From: Candidatus Sulfomarinibacteraceae bacterium
GTDB lineage: Bacteria > Acidobacteriota > Thermoanaerobaculia > Thermoanaerobaculales > Sulfomarinibacteraceae
DNA length: 64,000 nucleotides
Assembly: GCA_963785275.1 (NCBI GenBank)
Contig: CAWAUY010000028.1
Span: forward strand, 1,916 to 65,915
Direction of reading: 5' to 3'
Shown: piece after piece, positions 32,610 through 61,900 of the stretch
How positions within the stretch are numbered: the first letter of the stretch is position 1
Layout: each line of letters begins with the position of its first letter
The notes under the pieces: model-generated
The model's input: the letters and a program-made list of their open reading frames with translations, nothing else
Told to the model about the DNA's origin: nothing
Databases searched by the model: none
Made by a program: the position numbers and the translations under genes

Positions 32610-33893
32610 ATGGCAACAGAATTCAACGCATTTGCAATGGCCCAACGGCAGTTCGATGCGGTGGCCGACAAGCTCCAGCTCGACGAGGGCATTCGGGAGC
32701 TTCTGCGCTGGCCCCAGCGCGAGTTTCATTTCACCGTGCCGGTGCGGATGGATGATGGAAGCTACAAGGTTTTCAAGGGTTTTCGGGTGCAGCACAACGA
32801 CGCCCGTGGTCCCGCCAAAGGCGGCATCCGCTTTCACCCCCAGGAAACCGTTGACACGGTGCGTGCGCTGGCGACCTGGATGACCTGGAAGTGCGCCGTG
32901 GTCGATATCCCCCTCGGTGGCGGCAAAGGCGGTGTGATCTGCGATCCTCACGATCTGTCACCACGCGAACAGGAAGCGTTGTGCCGTGGTTGGGTCCGCC
33001 AGGTGTCGAAGAATGTCGGACCGGTCCAGGATGTGCCCGCCCCCGACGTGATGACCAACCCACAGCACATGGTGTGGATCATGGACGAGTACGAAAAGCT
33101 TGCCGGCGGCCACTACCCCGGATTCATCACCGGCAAGCCGGTCGAGGTGGGCGGTTCCCTGGGGCGGACCGAGGCCACGGGCTACGGTGTTATCTACACC
33201 GTGCGCGAGGCTTTGAAACGTTTCGACATCCCGGTGAAGGGCGTGCGCGCGACCATGCAGGGTTTCGGCAACGTCTCGCAATATGCCGCAAAGAAGCTGA
33301 TCGAGCTCGGTGGCATGGTGGTTGCTGTGGCCTGTTGGGACAACGATGATCACTGTGCCTACACCTTCCGCAAACCCGACGGAATCGATGTCGAGTTCCT
33401 GCTGTCGATCACCGATCGATTCGGCACGATCCACAAGGAGAAGGCCGAAGCGGCGGGGTACGAGGTCCTCGAGGCCGACGCCTGGCTCGACCAGGAGGCG
33501 GAGATCGTGATCCCGGCGGCGCTTGAAAACCAGATCACCGGCGACAACGTCAACCGCATCTCCGCGACGGCGAAAATTGTCGCCGAGGGCGCCAACGGTC
33601 CCACCACCCCGGAGGCCGACGCGGTGCTCAAGGAGCGCGGCATCTTCGTCATCCCCGATTTTCTGGCCAACGCGGGCGGGGTCACCTGTTCCTACTTCGA
33701 ACAGGTCCAATGCAACACCAACTTCTTCTGGCCCAAAGACGAGGTTCTCGAGCGCCTCGACCAGAAGATGACCCGCGCCTTTAACGCGGTCGCGGACCTC
33801 GCCCAGGAAACCGGGGAGTACATGCGCGACGCGGCCTACATGATCGCCATCCAACGGGTGGCCACTGCGTGCCATCTGCGGGGGTGGGCGTGA
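32610..33893 (+). CDS. gdh: Glutamate dehydrogenase (Glu/Leu/Phe/Val dehydrogenase family, about 425-aa GudB/RocG type)
   Basis: GPAKGGIRFHP and KCAVVDIPLGGGKGGV (catalytic Lys region), with the Rossmann motif QGFGNV. Confidence 0.95.
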   Translation: MATEFNAFAMAQRQFDAVADKLQLDEGIRELLRWPQREFHFTVPVRMDDGSYKVFKGFRVQHNDARGPAKGGIRFHPQETVDTVRALATWMTWKCAVVDIPLGGGKGGVICDPHDLSPREQEALCRGWVRQVSKNVGPVQDVPAPDVMTNPQHMVWIMDEYEKLAGGHYPGFITGKPVEVGGSLGRTEATGYGVIYTVREALKRFDIPVKGVRATMQGFGNVSQYAAKKLIELGGMVVAVACWDNDDHCAYTFRKPDGIDVEFLLSITDRFGTIHKEKAEAAGYEVLEADAWLDQEAEIVIPAALENQITGDNVNRISATAKIVAEGANGPTTPEADAVLKERGIFVIPDFLANAGGVTCSYFEQVQCNTNFFWPKDEVLERLDQKMTRAFNAVADLAQETGEYMRDAAYMIAIQRVATACHLRGWA

Positions 33894-33894
33894 C

Positions 33895-34010
33895 GGAAAT
33901 TTTGAATGTTAAGTTTTGAGTTTTGAGTTTCCGGCTGCGACGACTCGGCAAGCCCGAGTGGAAATTCCAGGTCAATTCAAAATTCAAAATTCAAAATTGA
34001 AAATTGAACC
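33895..34010 (+). repeat. Heptamer-repeat hairpin element A (TTTTGAR x4 ... AATTSAA x5)
   Basis: The left arm holds TTTTGAA TGTTAAG TTTTGAG TTTTGAG (33900-33927). The right arm holds AATTCAA x3 plus AATTGAA x2 (33974-34008). 33897-33929 pairs with 33974-34006: 26 Watson-Crick pairs, 3 G.U and 4 mismatches. The apical GC mini-hairpin is ACTCGG/CCGAGT (33943-33959). The element starts 2 nt after the gdh stop. Confidence 0.7.
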
Positions 34011-34013
34011 GTG

Positions 34014-34041
34014 TTGACCAACAAGGGGCCGTTGATATAGT
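34014..34041 (+). promoter_or_regulatory. Sigma70-type promoter of tRNA-Gln
   Basis: TTGACC(34014-34019)-N16-TATAGT(34036-34041), 27 nt upstream of the tRNA 5' end. Confidence 0.55.
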
Positions 34042-34067: not shown

Positions 34068-34141
34068 TGGGGTGTCGTCCAATGGTAGGACATGCGGCTC
34101 TGGACCGTAGTATCGGGGTTCGAATCCCTGCACCCCAGCCA
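34068..34141 (+). tRNA. tRNA-Gln (CTG), CCA encoded
   Basis: TGGGGTGTCGTCCAATGGTAGGACATGCGGCTCTGGACCGTAGTATCGGGGTTCGAATCCCTGCACCCCAGCCA. U1-A72 is typical of tRNA-Gln. The anticodon loop is CTCTGGA. Confidence 0.95.
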
Positions 34142-34151
34142 ATTCAGTTTT

Positions 34152-34176
34152 AAAAACCGGCCCACGCCGGTTTTTT
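34152..34176. terminator. Bidirectional intrinsic terminator (tRNA-Gln / thiamine pyrophosphokinase gene)
   Basis: AAAAACCGGC-CCAC-GCCGGTTTTTT. An A-run and a T-run flank a 5-bp GC stem. Confidence 0.75.
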
Positions 34177-34816
34177 ATATTGAGGCGTCATGCTGTCGCA
34201 TGACGATGACGGCCCCGCCTTCGGCCCGGACGCGGACCTCGTTGTGCGTGGCCTCGTTCGAGATTGACGGTCGGTTGCCTGCGTCGACGGCAGCGTTGTC
34301 GATCGGCCAGCGGACGCCGCCGACAGTGACGCGGGTGGTGGGATCGTAGCTCCAGAATGACCACGTTTCGCCGGGAACCGCATCGAGTCGGACGTCGCCG
34401 CGGATCGCCAGCAGTCGGTGTGAGTCGCCCTCGAAGACGAGGCGAGGCCCGAGAGCCAATCGGGCCAACAAGCCGAGGTTGCCGAGGTCGTGGTCGACCC
34501 GGCCACCGGTTGCGGCGAGAACCGTGATTTCCTGCACTCGCAAATTTTCAAACGCGTACTCCAGGGCCTTGTCGAGGTCGGTACGGTCCTGGTCCGGCCT
34601 CTCGATCATCAGATCGTCTCCGAGCCACGAGCGGGTCGACTCGCTGATCGAATCGAGATCACCGACCACCGCGACCGGGCGCAGTCCGACCCGAGCGAGG
34701 TGATCGGCCCCGCCGTCGGCCGCCAGCAAGTGTTCGGCGCCTGCGGCGAGCGCTGTCAAACGCGGTGTCCAGCGGAGGGGAGCGTTTGCCACCAGAACTG
34801 TTCGTGGGGCTGCCAT
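34175..34816 (-). CDS. thiN: Thiamine pyrophosphokinase
   Basis: VAVVGDLDSI (GDxDS motif), LAATGGRVDHDLGN, and a C-terminal thiamine-binding beta-domain. 213 aa. Confidence 0.8.
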   Translation of the reverse strand: MAAPRTVLVANAPLRWTPRLTALAAGAEHLLAADGGADHLARVGLRPVAVVGDLDSISESTRSWLGDDLMIERPDQDRTDLDKALEYAFENLRVQEITVLAATGGRVDHDLGNLGLLARLALGPRLVFEGDSHRLLAIRGDVRLDAVPGETWSFWSYDPTTRVTVGGVRWPIDNAAVDAGNRPSISNEATHNEVRVRAEGGAVIVMRQHDASI

Positions 34817-36408: not shown

Positions 36409-36499
36409 AAATTTTGAATTCTCAATTCCCATCAACCTGCGCGGGCATCGAGGTGTGGGCCCGTCATTCAAAATTCAAAATTGAGAATTAAGAATTCAC
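36409..36499 (+). repeat. Heptamer-repeat hairpin element B (same family as element A)
   Basis: The left end AAATTTTGAATTCTCAATT (36409-36427) shares AAATTTTGAAT with element A. The right array is CATTCAA AATTCAA AATTGAG AATTAAG AATTCAC (36465-36499). 36410-36427 pairs with 36479-36496: 16 Watson-Crick pairs, 1 U.G and 1 mismatch (g36416/a36490), including 11 consecutive pairs. It is preceded by GGCCGGCCGGCC (36397-36408). The right arm overlaps the osmC stop codon. Confidence 0.65.
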
Positions 36500-37777: not shown

Positions 37778-40700
37778 TCACTGCCTCACTGCCTCGTCGA
37801 GCGGGATCGTCACCAGGTGGTTTTCCCACGTTTGTGAAGCCACCAGGCTTCCATCTGGCATGAGTGCCACGGCGGTGACTCCCGGCAAGCCGTCGCGCAG
37901 CAACCGGGCGGGCGTTTGACCGGTCGGATCGACGTGCCACACCTCGCCGGTGCTCGGCGCCGTAGCAGCCAGCATTCCCGAAGGCAGCACCGCGAGGTAG
38001 GCCTCCTGTTGGTCGCCGTTGCTCCAGCCGGGGACGTCCAATCGACGGACCACCTGGCCCGTCGCCGTGTCCACCAGAGCGACCGCTCCGTCGACCGGAA
38101 CCGCAGCGGCCAGCAGCCCCGCCGACCACGCCAGACCCGTCACCGGTCCGGGCAGGGTCGCGACGACGGTCTCGCGCCATTCGGGTGGATCGAATCGCAG
38201 CAGACGCCGGTTTCCGGTGTCGGCCACAAACAGGCTGCCGTCGCCCGACCACAGTGCGTCGCGCGGTCCAAAGAGGTTTTTGCCGATGATTTTGATGGTG
38301 CCGTCGGGTAGAAGAAGCTGAACACGCCCATTCCAGGTATCGGCGACGGCGAGAGTGCCGTCTGCGGCCAGGGCGAGCCCCGACGGCTCCTTGAAAGTCC
38401 CGGGCGCAGTCCCCTCCTCACCCAAGACATCGAGACAGGCGCCCTGCGCGCTGAACCATTGAATGCGGTGGTTGAGGGTGTCGGCGACCGCGATCCAGCC
38501 GCCCGGCGACACCGCGAGACCCCGGGGCTCGCGCAGGCCGTTTCCGGCCCTCCCGGAGCCGCGCTGCCAGGGCGACGGACAACCAGGAGCAATCGACTCG
38601 ATGATGAGGCCGTCGGATCGGATCAGCCACAGGCTGTGGCCGCGCCCCGCGACGGCGTTGATTTCTCCCGCTCCCGGGAGGATCTGGCGCCAGGGCAAAA
38701 GACCTCCGCCGCTGCGGTGGACGCCCTGGCTGTCGACGGCCACCAGGTCCTTGCCCTGCCAGGCCAGAGATCGGACGCCGTCGAGAGCTCCACCGACTGC
38801 CGCCGGCTGGTCGCCCCGTCCCAATCGCACACTCCGTCCGTCGCTCCAGGCGAGCCAGTCGTCGTTGGCCGCGGCAGCCGTCACGGCGTCCGAAAAGGCG
38901 CGGCTCCACGTGTCGCCGTCACGCCGCCAGACACCCTCGTCGCCCCACGCCCAGAGAACTTCGCCTGCGGCCAGCCCGAGGGCGCCGGAGAGCCGTCCCT
39001 TCGGCTGCCAATTCTCACCGGCGAATCGAAACACTCGTCCGTCCGCACATAGGGACCAGGCTCTGTCCTGCCACCGTACCGCTCCGAGAACGTCACACGG
39101 CGGGATGGGCAGGGTGCCCGATGGCCACCCGGCGAGGTCGAGCTCGATCACCTGTCCGTCGAGGAGCGTTGCGAGAGCTCCCTTGCCATCGAGGGCCAGG
39201 GATCGGACGACGTCGTGCCGGGTTTCCGGCAACTCGGCGATCACAGTCGCCCCTTTTGGAAGTTGCATCGCGGGCGCGATCGGCGTTCGGGGCGCGACCC
39301 CTTCGGTGACCCGATAGAGCATCGCGCCATCGTGTTCCGCCACTTTGACGAGACCGGGGACCTCCTGCATCGCGCCGTCTCCCGTGAGTTGGTACTGCTC
39401 GCGCTCGAGATCGGCGAGCACCACCCACTGCACATCGTACCGGTCGAGCACCGCTCTTCGAGCCCGGTGGTCTCGGCCGGAGTACAGGGTCTTCAGATCA
39501 TCGAAGCGCGCGCCGATCTCTTCGACCGACTGGCCTCGTTGCTGGAGGTGCCACTCCCAGCCGACGACGGTCGGCTGCCCGGTGTGCATGACCATCCTGG
39601 TGTGTTGGGAGTAGGAGGCACCGGCCGATTCCGCCACCACGTCGCCGGGACGGGCCACGCCCTGAAGAGCGCGAACGAGAAAGGCGGTCTGGCGATCGCG
39701 ACCTGCGAGGTACGCCTGGCCGTTCAGCGACGGACGCGGTGACGCGGTTCTCGGTTGGATCCAGCCCTGCGCGATGCCGAGCGGCAGGTTGACGGCGGCG
39801 ACGAGCTGGAGCGGCAACCAGACGGCAAATACCAGCCGGCGCCTCCCGCCTCGAGTCCGCAACAGAACGACGGCGAGGGCGAGAGCGAACACGACCCACA
39901 CGCCGTTGTAAATCTTGAAAATGGTGTTCATGCGATCGATCAAGGTGAATCGTTCGCAGGCCGCGATCGCGAGACAGCCGAGCGCCGCGAGGGCCCACGC
40001 CATGCGGTCGAGACGGAAGCGGCGCGAGATGGCGACGGTTGCAAAAACCGCTGCAACAGCAAGCGCCAGGGCAGCGGCCGAGGAGCCGAAAGCGAGACCG
40101 CCCCAGACTCCGAGACCTGCGGTGGGGAGGACGATCCACCAGCGTCGCCCGAGAAGAGCCATCCCAAGCACCGCCATCGGCACCATGAACAGACCGAAGT
40201 GCCGCAGCACAGCCCACGCCGGTGCGAAATCGGCGTGGGTGACGAAGAGACCTCTGCCTCCGGCGCCGGCGTTGATTCCGGCAACGAGTTCGTAGACAAA
40301 GGGGAGTGCGGCTGCCAGGCTGAGGGTGCCCGCCGCCGCAAGACGGCCGAGGCCCGCAATCGGTTTCCGCGCCGCCGCCACGGTCCCGACAAAGAGGACC
40401 GCCGTGAGGAGAAAGAGATCCCAGGGGTTGGTGGCCACAACGACTGCCGCTCCGATGCCGCACACGCAGGCCGCGGCCAACCACTGCCGGTTGCGCGCAC
40501 TGACGGTGATCCAGCCCCAGAACAGAGTCGCCAAAAAGACCGGCAGGGCGATGAAGTGTCCGTGGAGGTCAGCAAAGAGCGCAGTCCACAAGGGATACTC
40601 GGTGATGGCGAATCCCGGCACGACCCTCGATGTCGCCCACCAGAGATCGAAGATCTTGTTCTTCTGTGCGAGATCGAACAGCCACGGCCAGGCGAGGTTT

Positions 40701-43303
40701 CCGGTGAGCAGGACCAGCAGCGGCAGCAGGGCGGCGGCAAACCACCCGCGCCGGCGGGCCAGCACCAGTCCGAAAGCGGCGAGGACCGCCGCCCCGAAGG
40801 CCGGGATCGCGGCTGCCAACAGGTTGTAGCCGACACCGGCGCTGCAGCCGGTGACCAGAATTGGAAAGGCCGCGAGAACCTCGCCGAAGTAGTAGTAGTT
40901 GAGCTGCATCCCGGCCATCCACGGTTCCCCGGGCGGCCATGAGGGGGCGTTGAGAAAGGCGTTGAGGAACGCGAAGTCCATTGGCTTCTCGCCCCAGTAG
41001 ATGGCGGGGTTGAAGGCCCTGACGACGAGGAAGACGAGGCCGACCGCACCGGTGATGACGAGGACCTTGAAGATCCCGCTGCGCCGCCGCTTGAACGTGA
41101 CGGTGATTTCGTGGCGGCCCCGCCACGCAACGGCGGCGGCAACCCCGGCCAACCCGAGAAAGATCCACGAGGCGGTGGCGGCGTTGATGGACCAGATGCG
41201 AAGCTCGCTGCCGAGCCACAGGAGCCAGGCGGGCAGGATCCAGCCAGTGGTCACGGCCAGACCGACCCCGGCGTCCGGCAGGCGTTTCAGCAACGGCAGG
41301 AACAGCACCCAGGTCGAGAGACCGAGCACGCCGAGCACCAGGGTCCACACGCCGAGATCGATGATCTGGCGGGTGGCCGACGGCACCGCCGGGAGGCTCG
41401 GCACAGGGTTGATCTTAGTGCGCTCGAGGCCCGCAAAACCGAGCATGTCGAGGTCGGGCAGAGGACGAAGGACCCGTTCGACGAGTCGTTCGGGTGCGAC
41501 CGCCGCGACCCGCCGGAAGATCAACACCTGGGGAAAGTCGTAGTTGACGAAACTCTCGTCAGCGCCTTGAACCGGCCACTCAAGACCGAAGATGCGGGGT
41601 TCGCGGTGAACCCTGGTCAACAGTTCGAAGCCCGCTTCGCCGTCCAGCAGCAGTCGGTACAGCCGGGCCGTCAGTGGGAACCTCTGCGGATTGGCGAAGA
41701 CCGTGCGCAGGACCCGGTTTGAGGTGATGACGATCCAATCGGCACGGGCGAGTTCGGTCGCCCAGCGGAGAGCCTTGCCTTCGTCGTCAGGGAGGTCGTA
41801 TGAGGGCAACGAGAACCGCTCGACGGAACCGTCGACCCCGTCGAGCGCGATCGTCTCGTCCCAGCTCTCGAAGGCCACGACCTGGCCGTCCTCCAGCATC
41901 GGCACGAGCCACTCTGTCGCCGTCTTGTGGGGGTGCGGTTGTGCAAAGGCCCAGAGGTACGCGACGCCCCACAGCACCGTGCCCGCTGCAACCAGCCCAA
42001 TCGCCCGCCGCCGGAACGGCGTTCGCAGACGGCACAACCACCAGGCGGCGATCAGGGTCGCGGGGACCACGAGGGGCTCCCAGTAGCGGAGATACTTGAC
42101 CTGGAGCGTGCTCAGCCGGATGGCCATCGGAACGAGCCAGGCGAGCAGCAACAGCAGCAATACAGAGCCCCTGTTCCAACGCCCGGCGAACCACCGGCGC
42201 CACCGGGTGGCGAACCGTCGGCCCGCCGCGGCGGAAGCAGCGAGCACCGCCAACAGGAGCATCGGCCCCCAGCCCCACAGCGCGAGCTCGCGGAGCGGGT
42301 AGAGGACGGGGAGGGTGTTTGCGTAGACCCGAACGTACGGAAGATCGGCCTCCCCGAGGACCATCCGGATCTGTTCGCCCACCCCACGCACATAGGCGGG
42401 GTTGAGATCGGGGCCGGCGGCCACGACCGCCAGCGCGCGACCAAAGGCACCATCGCCGCCGAGATCAAACAGGGCTGCAACCTGGAATGCGGCAAAGACC
42501 GCGCAGATGGCGGCCGCGACCACCAGCGCCTGCCGCACGGTTCCTTCTCTTTTCGCCGCAAGGTGGAGGGCGATCGCAGCAGCGACGAGCGCCCCGATGA
42601 GGGGCATCGGCGGGCGTGCCTCCACGAAGGCCCAGGGCTGGCACAACCAGAACGTCGCGGCAAGAGCGGACGACGCCAGCATCGCCAGCCGCATGACCTC
42701 GACGACCCGCAGCCGGCCCGCGAGGAGAATGGCCAGGGCCAGTGGCAGGCCGAGCGGCAAGGAGGCGACCTTGACCGCCAACGACGCGCCGACGGCGATG
42801 CCGGCGGCGGCGGCAGCCGGGCCGCGACCGCCGGTCGCCAGCCAATAGCAGGTAGCCAGCGCGGCCATCACCCACACCGAGTGATGGGCCTCGACGGTCG
42901 AAAAATGCGACTGTTGGAGATCGAGGGGAACCCATGCGACCACGAACAGGAAAAGGTCCGCGGTCTGTCTTCCCCACGCTTTCCGGGCGACGACCCAGCC
43001 GAGGATGAGGGCCAGCATCGATGCCAACAGCGAGACCGCTCGCCCGCTTGCGGTCAGCCCCCTCAACGAGTCGCTCATGCCGAGGATGGCCGCCGCTGCT
43101 CTCGTTCCCTGAAAGTGGAGCGAGCCGTAGGCAAAGAACTGAGGGTCGGAAAACCACCCGTCGATCTTCTGGCCGACAAAACTCACCTGTCGTTCGTCGG
43201 GGTGCAGGGAGGACGACGAGTAGCCCGAGTCCCACCCCTGCAGCAGAAGGCGCAGGCCCAGTGCGAGGAAAAGAAGCAGCCACGTTCGCTTGCGCAACAT
43301 CAT
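37778..43303 (-). CDS. Giant polytopic membrane protein: GT-C-like N-terminal region, YYY (DUF2298/Chlor_Arch_YYY) domain, C-terminal NHL-repeat beta-propeller
   Basis: 1841 aa with dozens of predicted TM helices. Contains SLHPDERQVSF near the N-terminus and GEKPMDFAFLNAF...GEPWMAGMQLNYYYFGEV (YYY motif). The C-terminal roughly 500 aa hold NHL-like blades (PRGLAVSPGGWIAVADTLNHRIQWF, PSGLALAADGTLAVADTWNGRVQLL, GSLFVADTGNRRLLRF). Confidence 0.85.
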   Translation of the reverse strand: MMLRKRTWLLLFLALGLRLLLQGWDSGYSSSSLHPDERQVSFVGQKIDGWFSDPQFFAYGSLHFQGTRAAAAILGMSDSLRGLTASGRAVSLLASMLALILGWVVARKAWGRQTADLFLFVVAWVPLDLQQSHFSTVEAHHSVWVMAALATCYWLATGGRGPAAAAAGIAVGASLAVKVASLPLGLPLALAILLAGRLRVVEVMRLAMLASSALAATFWLCQPWAFVEARPPMPLIGALVAAAIALHLAAKREGTVRQALVVAAAICAVFAAFQVAALFDLGGDGAFGRALAVVAAGPDLNPAYVRGVGEQIRMVLGEADLPYVRVYANTLPVLYPLRELALWGWGPMLLLAVLAASAAAGRRFATRWRRWFAGRWNRGSVLLLLLLAWLVPMAIRLSTLQVKYLRYWEPLVVPATLIAAWWLCRLRTPFRRRAIGLVAAGTVLWGVAYLWAFAQPHPHKTATEWLVPMLEDGQVVAFESWDETIALDGVDGSVERFSLPSYDLPDDEGKALRWATELARADWIVITSNRVLRTVFANPQRFPLTARLYRLLLDGEAGFELLTRVHREPRIFGLEWPVQGADESFVNYDFPQVLIFRRVAAVAPERLVERVLRPLPDLDMLGFAGLERTKINPVPSLPAVPSATRQIIDLGVWTLVLGVLGLSTWVLFLPLLKRLPDAGVGLAVTTGWILPAWLLWLGSELRIWSINAATASWIFLGLAGVAAAVAWRGRHEITVTFKRRRSGIFKVLVITGAVGLVFLVVRAFNPAIYWGEKPMDFAFLNAFLNAPSWPPGEPWMAGMQLNYYYFGEVLAAFPILVTGCSAGVGYNLLAAAIPAFGAAVLAAFGLVLARRRGWFAAALLPLLVLLTGNLAWPWLFDLAQKNKIFDLWWATSRVVPGFAITEYPLWTALFADLHGHFIALPVFLATLFWGWITVSARNRQWLAAACVCGIGAAVVVATNPWDLFLLTAVLFVGTVAAARKPIAGLGRLAAAGTLSLAAALPFVYELVAGINAGAGGRGLFVTHADFAPAWAVLRHFGLFMVPMAVLGMALLGRRWWIVLPTAGLGVWGGLAFGSSAAALALAVAAVFATVAISRRFRLDRMAWALAALGCLAIAACERFTLIDRMNTIFKIYNGVWVVFALALAVVLLRTRGGRRRLVFAVWLPLQLVAAVNLPLGIAQGWIQPRTASPRPSLNGQAYLAGRDRQTAFLVRALQGVARPGDVVAESAGASYSQHTRMVMHTGQPTVVGWEWHLQQRGQSVEEIGARFDDLKTLYSGRDHRARRAVLDRYDVQWVVLADLEREQYQLTGDGAMQEVPGLVKVAEHDGAMLYRVTEGVAPRTPIAPAMQLPKGATVIAELPETRHDVVRSLALDGKGALATLLDGQVIELDLAGWPSGTLPIPPCDVLGAVRWQDRAWSLCADGRVFRFAGENWQPKGRLSGALGLAAGEVLWAWGDEGVWRRDGDTWSRAFSDAVTAAAANDDWLAWSDGRSVRLGRGDQPAAVGGALDGVRSLAWQGKDLVAVDSQGVHRSGGGLLPWRQILPGAGEINAVAGRGHSLWLIRSDGLIIESIAPGCPSPWQRGSGRAGNGLREPRGLAVSPGGWIAVADTLNHRIQWFSAQGACLDVLGEEGTAPGTFKEPSGLALAADGTLAVADTWNGRVQLLLPDGTIKIIGKNLFGPRDALWSGDGSLFVADTGNRRLLRFDPPEWRETVVATLPGPVTGLAWSAGLLAAAVPVDGAVALVDTATGQVVRRLDVPGWSNGDQQEAYLAVLPSGMLAATAPSTGEVWHVDPTGQTPARLLRDGLPGVTAVALMPDGSLVASQTWENHLVTIPLDEAVRQ

Positions 43304-56200: not shown

Positions 56201-56243
56201 AACCAAGAATCAACTGATAGGTTGCGGTCGGTATGAATCAGAT

Positions 56244-56418
56244 ATTTGATCTTGGATTTTGGATATTTGTTCTTACGGTGCTCTACGCTTGGCCTGCTTG
56301 TGGTGGCGATTACGATTTGTTGACATCCAACATCCAACATCCTGTCAACACTCCGCGATCTTACCATTCCGAGAAGCAGTCTGGCAAGAGTATCCAACAT
56401 CCAACATCCAACATCCGT
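56244..56418 (+). repeat. Heptamer-repeat element C: one (nTTGGAT) array and two complementary (CATCCAA) arrays between mutS2 and dnaG
   Basis: L array: ATTTGAT CTTGGAT TTTGGAT ATTTGTT (56244-56271). R1 array: CATCCAA CATCCAA CATCC (56324-56342), sitting in the loop of the 8-bp hairpin TGTTGACA/TGTCAACA (56318-56325/56343-56350). R2 array: TATCCAA CATCCAA CATCCAA CATCCGT (56391-56418). Confidence 0.7.
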
Positions 56419-58200: not shown

Positions 58201-58471
58201 CATTTTCTGCTCCACAGGGGTTGCCAAAACCGGTTTTGAGACCCATATTCCCTTGGATGGTGAGTGGCCCTGCGCACAGTGCCTGTGCTGAGAACCGACG
58301 CCCACCTTGAACACACCTTGATGGACGGAATTTTTGACTGACCCCTTTTGGGAATGGAATGCCTGCGCGAAGTGCTGTTCACTGCGCAGTGCCTCGGGCA
58401 GTGTCGAACGACCGGTGAACCCCTCGTATGTATCGGTTTGAGCAATTCTCCCTCGTGAATGGAGGCGGCTT

Positions 58472-60194: not shown

Positions 60195-60296
60195 GGCTTG
60201 GGGCCTGGGGCTTGGGGCTTGAGATCCGAAATCAAGGCCAAACCTCAAGCCTCGAGCCCCAGGCCCCAAGCCCATCTACCGGCTTGCTGGTAGATG
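60195..60296 (+). repeat. Heptamer-repeat hairpin element D (CTTGGGG-type / CCCCAAG-type arms, 29-bp stem) plus a second 8-bp hairpin
   Basis: 60195-60223 pairs with 60244-60272 over 29 consecutive pairs: 27 Watson-Crick and 2 G.U. The loop is 20 nt. The second hairpin is CATCTACC(60273-60280)/GGTAGATG(60289-60296). The element starts 8 nt after the rpoD stop and ends 23 nt before tRNA-Met. Confidence 0.8.
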
Positions 60297-60318: not shown

Positions 60319-60391
60319 GGGCCCATAGCTCAGCGGTCAGAGCCGCCGGCTCATAACCGGTCGGTCCCAGGTTCGAATCCTGGTGGGCCCA
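60319..60391 (+). tRNA. tRNA with CAT anticodon (elongator Met, or Ile2 if lysidine-modified); CCA not encoded
   Basis: GGGCCCATAGCTCAGCGGTCAGAGCCGCCGGCTCATAACCGGTCGGTCCCAGGTTCGAATCCTGGTGGGCCCA folds as a cloverleaf with a 7-bp acceptor stem and anticodon loop CTCATAA. The discriminator A is followed by TGG. Confidence 0.9.
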
Positions 60392-61173
60392 TGGTCTGGG
60401 GCGCACCCGCGGGGGGTGAATATTTGAGCAAGGAACTTCGCGATCTCGTCTTGTTGGTTCAGCTGCAGGATATCTACAGCTCGATCTCGGAAGCCATTGC
60501 TGAGCGGAACTCTCCTCCCGTGGAAATTCGCGAGTTGCAGGAAGAAAACCGCGTGCGCCAGCAGGAGCTCGAAGAGATGGAGCAACAGATGGTTGCCCAC
60601 GAAGAGGAAATCAAGGAAGTTCAGAAAAAACAGGCCGAGTGGGAGCTCGAGCTCGAGCATTTTCAGAAGCAGAAGAGCATTGTCAGCAACGAGCGCGAAT
60701 TCACCGCAGTGATCTCCGAGATCGATTACGCGACCAAGGAAATCGAGGGGGCGTCGGCACGCCGCAAAGAGCTCGAAGAAGCCATTGCAGGCATCCAGGG
60801 CGAAGTCGCCGAACGCCGCGAGGCGCGTCCCGACGAAGAGGGAGCGCATAAAGAGGTGGTCGAAGGCTGGGAAGCGCGCAAGGAAGAGCTGTTGAAGATC
60901 GTCCACGATCTTTCGAAGAAGGCCAAAAAGGTCGAGAAAGACATCCAACCCAAACAGCGAGCGCGATTCATGCGACTGCTCGAGAGCAAACAGGGCAAGG
61001 CGTTGTCGGCGGTGGTCGACGGTTCGTGTTCGCTCTGCCATTTTGAACTTCGCCCCCACCTTCAACAGCGCGTACGGCGCAGCGACGAAATTATCGATTG
61101 CGAGCACTGCCACCGGATCCTCTACGTTGAGGACGTCCTGACAGCATGGAGTGCCGATACTGCCGAGGGCTGA
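60391..61173 (+). CDS. Coiled-coil protein with a C-terminal C4 zinc ribbon (COG1579/DUF164-like)
   Basis: A long heptad-rich coiled coil, then CSLCHFELRPHLQQRVRRSDEIIDCEHCHRILY. The start is uncertain: ATG 60391 overlaps the tRNA discriminator base, and TTG 60424 is preceded by GGGGGGTGA. The ORF-track start at 60313 lies inside the tRNA. Confidence 0.75.
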   Translation: MVWGAPAGGEYLSKELRDLVLLVQLQDIYSSISEAIAERNSPPVEIRELQEENRVRQQELEEMEQQMVAHEEEIKEVQKKQAEWELELEHFQKQKSIVSNEREFTAVISEIDYATKEIEGASARRKELEEAIAGIQGEVAERREARPDEEGAHKEVVEGWEARKEELLKIVHDLSKKAKKVEKDIQPKQRARFMRLLESKQGKALSAVVDGSCSLCHFELRPHLQQRVRRSDEIIDCEHCHRILYVEDVLTAWSADTAEG

Positions 61174-61177
61174 TTCG

Positions 61178-61900
61178 ATGTCCGAGCTTGCTGACCGTCT
61201 GGCTCTGGTACAGGGGCGCGTTGCTCGAGCCGCGACCAGCGCCGCACGCGACCCGTCAGAGATAACCCTCGTCGCTGTCGGCAAAACCTTCCCCGCCGAG
61301 GTCGTGCGCGAGGCGGTCGAAGCTGGCGCCACGGATCTCGGAGAGAACCGGGTGCAGGAGTCGGTCGCCAAGAAGCCTCTGGTTCCCCCCGCACGTTGGC
61401 ACCTGATCGGTCCGCTTCAGCGCAACAAAGTGAAGGCTGCGCTGGAGACCTTTGATTTCATTCACACACTCGACAGGATTGAGCTTGCCGACCGTCTGCA
61501 GACGCTGCTCACAAAAAACTGGCCCGAGCGGCGGATGCCGGTTCTGCTCGAGATCAACATCGGACGAGAGCCGCAGAAGGCCGGAGCGCTGCCTGATGAG
61601 GCCGTTGAACTGCTCCGGCACGTCCGGGGCTGCGATCGTCTCGACGTGCGCGGCTTGATGGCGATCCCACCGTGGGGTGACGATCCTGAGGCGTCGCGGC
61701 CGTTTTTCCGCGAACTCCGTGAACTTCGGGATCTGTTGCAGCAGACCGCGCAGGTCCCGTTGCCGGAGCTCTCGATGGGGATGAGCCACGACTTCGAGTT
61801 GGCCATCGCCGAAGGCGCCACCATGGTCCGCGTCGGCACCGCGATTTTCGGCCGGCGGGGTGGGCGAACCAAGCGGCGTTCGAGTGCGCCTCTGAAATAG
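61178..61900 (+). CDS. yggS: YggS-family pyridoxal-phosphate homeostasis protein
   Basis: LVAVGKTFP (PLP Lys), GENRVQE, WHLIGPLQRNKVK, and SMGMSHDFELAIAEGATMVRVGTAIFG. Confidence 0.9.
   Translation: MSELADRLALVQGRVARAATSAARDPSEITLVAVGKTFPAEVVREAVEAGATDLGENRVQESVAKKPLVPPARWHLIGPLQRNKVKAALETFDFIHTLDRIELADRLQTLLTKNWPERRMPVLLEINIGREPQKAGALPDEAVELLRHVRGCDRLDVRGLMAIPPWGDDPEASRPFFRELRELRDLLQQTAQVPLPELSMGMSHDFELAIAEGATMVRVGTAIFGRRGGRTKRRSSAPLK

Follow-up and report, generated by a model that had tools for sequence, protein, structure and literature searches.

Paired inverted heptanucleotide arrays behind gdh and other genes of a Sulfomarinibacteraceae bacterium belong to an abundant, fast-evolving class of intergenic repeats

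A self-complementary element downstream of gdh

In the window (the whole 64,000-nt stretch of DNA that was analysed, to which positions refer unless a contig is named), the gdh gene is separated from the gene for tRNA-Gln by a repeat element, here called element A. Loci compared with the window bear numbers prefixed with L. The features of the region are as follows.

33891-33893, plus strand: stop codon TGA of gdh (32610-33893), Glu/Leu/Phe/Val dehydrogenase
33897-33929, plus strand: 5' arm of element A, a T/G-rich heptamer array (TTTTGAA TGTTAAG TTTTGAG TTTTGAG at 33900-33927)
33930-33973, plus strand: core of element A, a GC-rich stretch without repeats that contains a 6-bp hairpin, ACTCGG-CAAGC-CCGAGT (33943-33959)
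33974-34008, plus strand: 3' arm of element A, an A-rich heptamer array (AATTCAA three times, then AATTGAA twice), an inverted copy of the 5' arm
34014-34041, plus strand: near-consensus tRNA-Gln promoter TTGACC-16-TATAGT, beginning 5 nt past the 3' arm
34068-34141, plus strand: tRNA-Gln(CTG), followed by a canonical hairpin and T-run terminator (34144-34183)

The two arms of element A are complementary. Between 33897-33929 and 33974-34006, 29 of the 33 positions are paired, by 26 Watson-Crick pairs and three G.U pairs (G33913-T33990, G33920-T33983 and G33927-T33976), and four are mismatched. The consensus units of the arms agree at six of seven positions, and the position that differs gives rise to the G.U pair on the plus strand. 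TRF counted 4.4 copies in the 5' array (33900-33930) and 4.6 in the 3' array (33974-34005), and the inverted pair was also found by a repeat search. On re-reading the sequence, the four plus-strand heptamers, the core hairpin and the five AATTSAA units of the initial annotation were reproduced at the same coordinates, and its count of paired positions (29 of the 33, including the three G.U pairs) was obtained again base by base. The distance that it gave from the gdh stop codon (2 nt) needs correction: the first heptamer lies 6 nt and the paired region 3 nt downstream of the stop.

Folding of 33890-34015, proposed as a check when the element was first described, gave a stable predicted structure of -40.2 kcal/mol on the plus strand (z -4.0; none of 200 shuffles equalled it); the minus strand gave -30.4 kcal/mol (z -2.9). 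The terminator and promoter scans bear out the earlier statements that the element has no terminal U-tract and that it sits before the tRNA-Gln promoter. The 3' arm is followed by CCGTGTTGACC, in which no U-tract could be read, and a scan of 33890-34015 for intrinsic terminators gave no prediction, as no GC-rich stem with a U-tract was found. The organism uses canonical terminators elsewhere, for example 3' of tRNA-Gln (34144-34183). A search of Rfam at gathering score returned tRNA matches only, and at E ≤ 1 no match overlapped element A or element B (described below); element D had only sub-threshold matches to miRNA precursors, that is, to generic hairpins.

Elements of the same design in the window

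Three further elements, B, C and D, had been assigned the same design, and their sequences and folds bear this out. Their features are as follows.

36409-36429, plus strand: 5' arm of element B, AAATTTTGAATTCTCAATTCC, 13 nt past the PhoH-PIN stop codon and two units (14 nt) shorter than in L001
36466-36499, plus strand: 3' arm of element B (ATTCAAA ATTCAAA ATTGAGA ATTAAGA ATTCAC), containing the OsmC stop codon on the minus strand (36488-36490)
56248-56270, plus strand: 5' arm of element C, TTGGATx-type units, in the MutS2-DnaG spacer
56323-56342, plus strand: internal array of element C, ACATCCA, 2.9 copies
56392-56416, plus strand: 3' arm of element C, ATCCAAC, 3.6 copies, 80% complementary to 56240-56264
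60195-60223, plus strand: 5' arm of element D, four GGCTTGG-type units, 7 nt downstream of the rpoD stop codon (60187)
60244-60273, plus strand: 3' arm of element D, CCAAGCC-type, 93% complementary, ending just before the tRNA-Met promoter

Element B (36409-36499) lies between the convergent genes for PhoH-PIN and OsmC. Element D lies between the genes for RpoD and tRNA-Met and has a predicted fold of -67 kcal/mol; the tRNA-Met promoter downstream of it (TTGCTG-17-TACCAT) is conserved among relatives. Elements A and D each take up all the room between a stop codon and the promoter that follows; for element A this space ends at the -35 box of tRNA-Gln. Provision of back-up stop codons was considered as the purpose of the arrays and rejected: element A has stops in three frames and the array of element D has none.

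The OsmC stop codon lies inside an arm of element B (window 36488-36499), as it also does in L002 and L003, and the protein tails end in TVNS, RVSSS and VVSSQF. This C-terminal tail varies between genomes, so that turnover of the array rewrites the end of the protein.

Abundance, unit length and position relative to genes

Six period-7 arrays of at least three copies, belonging to elements A to D, were observed in the 64-kb window against 0.41 expected, the expectation being the mean of 100 locally dinucleotide-shuffled windows (maximum, 2). When intergenic arrays of at least three copies were counted in the window and 15 related loci (335 kb), 42 had period 7, 12 had period 6, nine had period 8, and any other period was represented at most twice. 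An enrichment of heptamer arrays over shuffled sequence, as anticipated in the initial annotation, is thereby found within the window, and period 7 is dominant in the relatives. Arrays of 6- to 8-nt units were present in 38 of 169 intergenic spacers of the window and its relatives. The share of spacers with an array was 35% where the genes converge, about 20% where they are in tandem and 13% where they diverge; the difference between convergent and divergent spacers was significant (Fisher p = 0.02), and the divergent spacers are longer.

The arrays lie close to gene 3' ends. Twenty-two of the 42 intergenic period-7 arrays were within 25 nt of a stop codon and two of the 42 within 25 nt of a start codon, which upholds the association with 3' ends drawn earlier from the elements of the window. 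Gene calls were crude (long ORFs with high GC3), and start-codon distances are therefore less reliable than stop-codon distances. For about 60% of the period-7 arrays an inverted partner was found within 300 nt, well over the proportion at control positions.

A single genome can carry many unrelated heptamers; those found include AATTTTG, GGCTTGG, ATCCAAC, CGGGACT, GTCGACA and CATAGCC. Long arrays without a partner also occur (GCCGCAC, 15 copies, in L013; GGCTCGG, 22 copies, in L075; GAGCTGT, 13 copies, in L077). Inverted arrays are also built from 8-nt units (GGTGAGAG/TCTCACCT) or 6-nt units (CCGCTT/CGGAAG; CAGGGA/CTGCCC), at L013:7750-7836, L014:18726-18908 and L205:1480-1900, indicating that seven is the mode and not a strict rule. 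In L203:1-1933, MutS2 is called with 846 aa, against 789 aa in the window, and its frame continues into a CATAGCC heptamer array, so that arrays can corrupt automatic gene calls.

The same sites in related genomes

By its GDH protein, the window belongs to the Thermoanaerobaculia (Acidobacteriota) and is close to 'Sulfomarinibacteraceae' MAGs (96% identity). Paired inverted heptamer arrays stand directly 3' of gdh in seven related loci (L001, L002, L003, L006, L008, L011 and L013). L005 and L010 have the gene-proximal array only, followed by a canonical terminator, L007 has array remnants, and L009, L012, L014 and L015 have plain terminators and no element. Arrays and canonical terminators occur together at the gdh 3' end of L005, L008, L010 and L011, so the arrays are not simple replacements of terminators. 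In the more distant relatives the gdh element adjoins a convergent gene and there is no tRNA. The tRNA-Gln promoter is conserved in L001 to L003; the element next to it is not conserved in sequence.

Variants of the element occupy the same sites in independent assemblies, namely L001 (a JGI metagenome) and the MAGs L002, L003, L006 and L008, and this excludes an assembly artefact of low-complexity reads, which the initial annotation had named as a possible refutation. Across genomes with 81-96% GDH identity, the units at the gdh site form a graded series (AATTTTG, AGTTTTG, AGTTCTC, AGTTCAC, AGTTCAG and AGTCGAC), as if a single ancient array had evolved at this position. The pattern recurs downstream of rpoD, where L203 has four GGCTTGA units with two CCAAGCC units, L202 has ATGGGCT with seven CATAGCC units, and L204 and L205 have plain GC hairpins. 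Where relatives have no array at the gdh or rpoD 3' end, plain GC hairpins are found in the same slot, often with T-runs. Across genomes, the sites at the 3' ends of gdh, phoH/osmC and rpoD are conserved, and the elements that occupy them change in heptamer family, unit number and core.

Turnover of units, arms and cores

The comparison of the window with L001 gives the closest view of this turnover. The two have identical GDH and 97% identity over 5.5 kb; their copies of element A have 50-74% identity with unrelated cores (50% identity), and the only arm in which their copies of element B differ is two units longer in L001, a difference of exactly 14 nt. Inversion of the core by recombination between the arms was considered for the difference between the window and L001 and was rejected, as the cores are unrelated in both orientations. 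The 3' arm of the rpoD element has four to five units in the window against two in L203. At site B, the window, L002 and L003, which have about 96% identical GDH, carry three different families, of the AATTCTC, TTAGCTA and AGTTTTG types.

The arms of an element stay close to each other. When the consensus units of the two arms were compared across 20 elements, they matched at 7/7 positions in seven and at 6/7 in ten, and the differences were mostly single transitions. Several stems have one mismatch per 7 nt, which is the pattern expected from separate homogenisation of each arm. As judged from these comparisons, arrays gain and lose whole units, and their arms are homogenised separately yet usually remain within one substitution per unit. 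Complementarity can also be lost: between the orthologous elements of L006 and L008, an arm has decayed in L008 without compensation and the predicted fold weakens from -52 to -35 kcal/mol, an observation that speaks against pairing being under strong selection.

A whole element can be copied to another site, as L003 shows: its elements A and B, separated by 2.4 kb, match each other in inverted orientation, and the match extends through the core (94% over 32 nt). The two copies (A, L003:11288-11402; B, L003:13790-13893) are near-identical, and other genomes carry unrelated elements at both sites. Besides orthologues and this pair, no second copies of the A, B, C and D cores were found in all DNA compared. 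Element A is, on this evidence, one member of an abundant and fast-evolving set of intergenic arrays of 6- to 8-nt units in Thermoanaerobaculia and other Acidobacteriota.

Two local rearrangements were also observed. In L085:1000-1317, two whole heptamer-hairpin elements stand 180 nt apart with a 52-nt core that is 100% identical; the copies differ in the unit number of the 5' arm, and the element and spacer have been duplicated locally. In L002:13850-13885, a perfect small palindrome, CTCTAACGGCGC-GAAG-GCGCCGTTAGAG, covers the phoH stop codon and runs into a TTAGCTx array. The arrangement resembles the outcome of a fold-back (template-switch) event in which the end of the gene was copied and gave rise to the array.

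Strand preference and arm order

In the window, L001, L002 and L003, the gdh-sense strand folds 7-9 kcal/mol better than the antisense strand, with 15 G.U pairs against three, which suggests a role of the plus-strand RNA at the gdh site. Among 18 AATTTTG-type elements in tandem gene contexts, the sense strand was favoured in seven and the antisense strand in 11, and differences between arm consensus units were of the G.T type in five cases and of the A.C type in eight (7 of 20 elements each). The earlier proposal that G.U pairs favour the plus-strand RNA holds at gdh in four genomes and fails as a general rule (seven sense, 11 antisense). Because the strand test fails beyond gdh, the G.U pairs are not taken as proof of RNA function.

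The order of the arms is more regular, the T-rich arm coming first in all seven cases at unbiased loci. In viral contigs, for which the scans gave at least 80 loci per arm order and the comparison is limited to the periodic subsets, the T-rich arm came first in five cases against one. A G+T-rich arm followed by an A/C-rich arm is seen in elements A and B of the window, in L001, L002, L006 and L008, and in the viral contigs L220, L224, L234, L239 and L259. This order is opposite to that of a bidirectional terminator built of an A-tract, a hairpin and a T-tract.

Distribution in metagenomes

A metagenome scan for AATTTTGAAT-N40-70-ATTCAAAATT found at least 120 loci with GC contents from 0.16 to 0.65. 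Among the matches listed, both arms were 7-nt periodic in 36-39 loci, and the high-GC matches were at other loci, again abutting stop codons. Over 355 units of AATTTTG-type arrays on numerous unrelated contigs, also among the matches listed, positions 1-4 (AATT) were kept at 82-92% and positions 5-7 at 63-75%.

The contigs with AATTTTG-type inverted heptamer hairpins (L082-L201) have GC contents of 0.28-0.65 among the matches listed. A mid-GC match (L170:9673-9756) is on a Prevotella/Hallella contig, and in Bacteroidota- or Prevotella-like contigs the same cores recur at different loci (L109/L170, L087/L138 and L102/L184). In a low-GC group (L107, L174, L184, L199 and L200), the 7-nt periodicity continues through the core.

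Comparison with known repeats and terminators

Heptameric repeats have been known in cyanobacteria since 1990 as STRR. The comparison with STRR made in the initial annotation was apt, since these too comprise several heptamer families per genome and are intergenic and abundant; STRR are, however, mainly direct arrays, and phylum and base composition also differ. The claim that paired inverted heptamer arrays had not been described in a high-GC bacterium is not supported. Convergently paired, intergenic GGGAATC heptamer sites have been reported in two Xanthomonas species (70 and 75 cases); these pairs could form stem-loops, and their unit number varies between species while their place is conserved (Rehm et al. 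2015, PMC4692102). The same study found few inverted heptamer pairs in Nostoc. It also cites previous work in which many bacteria had an excess of heptameric SSRs, for which polymerase slippage favouring 7-nt units is a possible cause (PMC4692102).

Element A has the properties of such heptanucleotide SSRs, with at least three head-to-tail copies, an intergenic position, a convergent pair of arrays, and a conserved place with variable unit number among close relatives. The present arrays are like the Xanthomonas GGGAATC sites in their high-GC host, intergenic location, nearby opposite-strand arrays, conservation of single or paired type, and conservation of some unit positions. Whereas a single G-rich family that could form G-quadruplexes dominates in Xanthomonas, one genome here can hold many unrelated families, several of which are AT-rich; G-tracts are absent from element A, which shows neither GGGANTN units nor the capacity for a G-quadruplex. 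The tight proximity to stop codons, the replacement of cores and the copying from site to site go beyond the Xanthomonas report. Direct TAACTGA heptamer repeats have been described upstream of start codons in Beggiatoaceae, cyanobacteria and Bacteroidetes (MacGregor 2015, PMC4679880). These are likewise abundant intergenic heptamer arrays that span phyla, but they are almost all direct, use one heptamer and precede genes, in contrast to the inverted pairs of many heptamers behind stop codons found here. A search for literature on heptamer repeats in Acidobacteria or Thermoanaerobaculia found nothing.

The elements also recall the REP, BIME and REPIN sequences of proteobacteria, which are extragenic palindromes behind genes, often between convergent genes, and form inverted doublets and hairpins of about 100 nt. 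REP and BIME elements have roles in mRNA 3'-end protection and in termination. REPs are 20-40 nt long, exist in hundreds of near-identical copies and are mobilised by RAYT, whereas the arms here are microsatellites with site-specific sequences that are not known to be accompanied by a RAYT. Within roughly 0.4 Mb of DNA from this family, a core was shared only by elements A and B of L003, and arms differed between sites. With intrinsic terminators the elements share a stable hairpin immediately after the stop codon, in the slot in which relatives have canonical terminators. Unlike an intrinsic terminator, the stem of element A has no U-tract, is far longer, AU-rich and imperfect, and has its T-rich arm first.

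Integron attC sites, by comparison, have 7-bp core sites (R''/L''-L'/R'; RYYYAAC...GTTRRRY), lie at the 3' ends of mobile cassettes and have an integrase nearby. An attC-like reading was rejected because the flanks are syntenic housekeeping genes (gdh, tRNA, phoH and rpoD); the arms consist of four to five contiguous units, against the two spaced core sites of attC.

Proposed explanation and alternatives

The explanation that we favour, with a probability of roughly 45%, is that element A is a self-complementary microsatellite, made and renewed by slippage and templated copying, which probably serves as a 3'-end hairpin without a U-tract in the terminator slot. The dynamics come from the comparison of genomes; the copying mechanism and the RNA role are what we infer from them. 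Element A consists of two inverted copies of a single array, (TTTTGAR)n, around a short GC-rich core. Slipped-strand mispairing in 7-nt steps would set the unit number, and hairpin-templated (intramolecular) and ectopic gene conversion may keep or restore the symmetry of the arms and swap the cores. Transcribed as the gdh 3' UTR, the element would fold into an AU-rich stem that is long and imperfect and has the core hairpin at its tip, and this stem may act as a barrier to 3' exonucleases or as an insulator against read-through before the tRNA promoter. The element stands in the slot held by ordinary hairpin terminators in array-less relatives.

The main alternative, which we consider less likely, is that the arrays are a functionless by-product of slippage, fold-back or template switching and gene conversion alone, and that the RNA hairpin has no selected role. 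Their accumulation behind stop codons would then reflect nothing more than the low constraint on intergenic DNA at these positions. Extreme turnover with loss in several lineages, the uncompensated arm decay in L008 relative to L006, the lack of a general sense-strand bias and the long partnerless arrays of L013, L075 and L077 would all be expected of such a by-product. The same design with 6- and 8-nt units, the resemblance of the L002 palindrome, copied from the phoH end, to a fold-back event, and the suggestion in the literature that polymerase slippage favours 7-nt units (PMC4692102) point the same way. The by-product reading has more difficulty with the very strong proximity to stop codons (22 against 2) and with the depletion of divergent spacers in spite of their greater length. 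Sites are, moreover, shared at 4-19% GDH protein divergence, canonical terminators are missing where the lineage of the window has long array hairpins, and the G.U pairs of the gdh-sense strand are consistent in four genomes.

A bolder proposal, which we regard as unlikely, is that the arrays are no passive microsatellites and that a dedicated, sequence-independent process builds and renews 7-nt-stepped hairpins behind stop codons in several phyla as a general U-tract-independent 3'-end module. Replication or repair enzymes that copy from a hairpin template or measure out units could carry out this process, as could a mobile system not yet recognised, and it would span Acidobacteriota, Bacteroidota (e.g. 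Prevotella), Xanthomonas and cyanobacteria. If true, it would also explain the 35-year-old puzzle of STRR.

We think it distinctly unlikely that the elements are non-autonomous mobile elements of the REPIN or MITE type, with the arms as terminal inverted repeats for a transposase (e.g. RAYT). The discrete, full-length inverted copies A and B of L003 at two sites would suit transposition, and so would the replacement of whole spacers between near-identical strains, the presence of different families at one site, stop codons provided by an arm, and the recurrence of cores across loci in Bacteroidota-like contigs. However, neither the two L003 copies nor element A is flanked by a target-site duplication of the kind expected of a MITE. 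In Thermoanaerobaculia and other high-GC DNA compared, no core was repeated save in orthologues and the L003 pair, and arm sequences vary from site to site within one genome. A Pfam scan of ten genes flanking elements identified no transposase, and the graded series at gdh fits local evolution in situ better than transposition.

Protein-binding heptad arrays, with one subunit per 7-nt unit on dsDNA or ssRNA, are a highly improbable explanation. One precedent on dsDNA is omega of pSM19035, an RHH repressor whose binding sites are heptads in direct or inverted orientation; the heptads found here are contiguous and in convergent orientation. Stronger conservation of AATT (82-92%) than of the last three positions (63-75%) over the 355 units among the matches listed, and the T-rich arm in first place at 7/7 unbiased loci, would also agree with binding, as would RAUUUUGR, which resembles an Sm/Hfq site. 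For the TAACTGA repeats, binding of cold-shock, S1, Hfq or Sm-like proteins to single-stranded RNA has been proposed (PMC4679880). Against a binding array stand the many unrelated heptamers within one genome and the sharing of the design by 6- and 8-nt units, and no candidate binding protein was found.

That the A-rich 3' arm of element A is an UP-like element boosting the tRNA-Gln promoter, with the 5' arm incidental, is scarcely credible: the promoter is near consensus and its -35 box follows the end of the arm by 5 nt, an arrangement retained in L001-L003, but bases -38 to -46 (ATTGAACCG) do not fit the consensus of the proximal UP subsite, the gdh element of distant relatives adjoins a convergent gene and not a tRNA, and an UP element is rejected as a general explanation because the equivalent element D before tRNA-Met is GC-rich and element B, between convergent genes, has no promoter.

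Significance of the repeat class

The repeat class is real, abundant and fast-evolving; it is new for Acidobacteriota, while repeats of this kind had been reported before from Xanthomonas and cyanobacteria. The lineage offers an unusually clear natural experiment, in which about one spacer in five has an array and the arrays lie directly behind stop codons. At the same housekeeping loci of close genomes, whole units have been gained or lost, arms homogenised, cores exchanged and elements copied from one site to another. Should the hairpins terminate transcription or act as stabilisers, repeat hairpins without a U-tract would have to be considered whenever terminators are predicted in Acidobacteria and other phyla. 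Should they be neutral, they would be a striking case of palindromic microsatellites that perpetuate themselves, and through them the 3' ends of genes would change rapidly, protein C-termini such as that of OsmC among them. In practice, the arrays offer hypervariable markers for strain typing and present a hazard for short-read assembly.

Other features of the window

A minus-strand ORF of 1841 aa (37778-43303) coincides with a strong AT skew of 0.20-0.37 at 40-43 kb and a GC content of about 0.70. A second minus-strand ORF of 344 aa (60337-61371) has coding-like GC3, and its 3' end overlaps tRNA-Met. No Pfam family matches this ORF, which may be a mis-call or an unknown protein. In the dnaG-rpoD spacer (58201-58471), a promoter-like sequence TTGCCA-17-CATATT (58221-58249) was found. 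This sequence is conserved in L202-L205, as are blocks of the rpoD leader (about 230 nt), which may be regulated.
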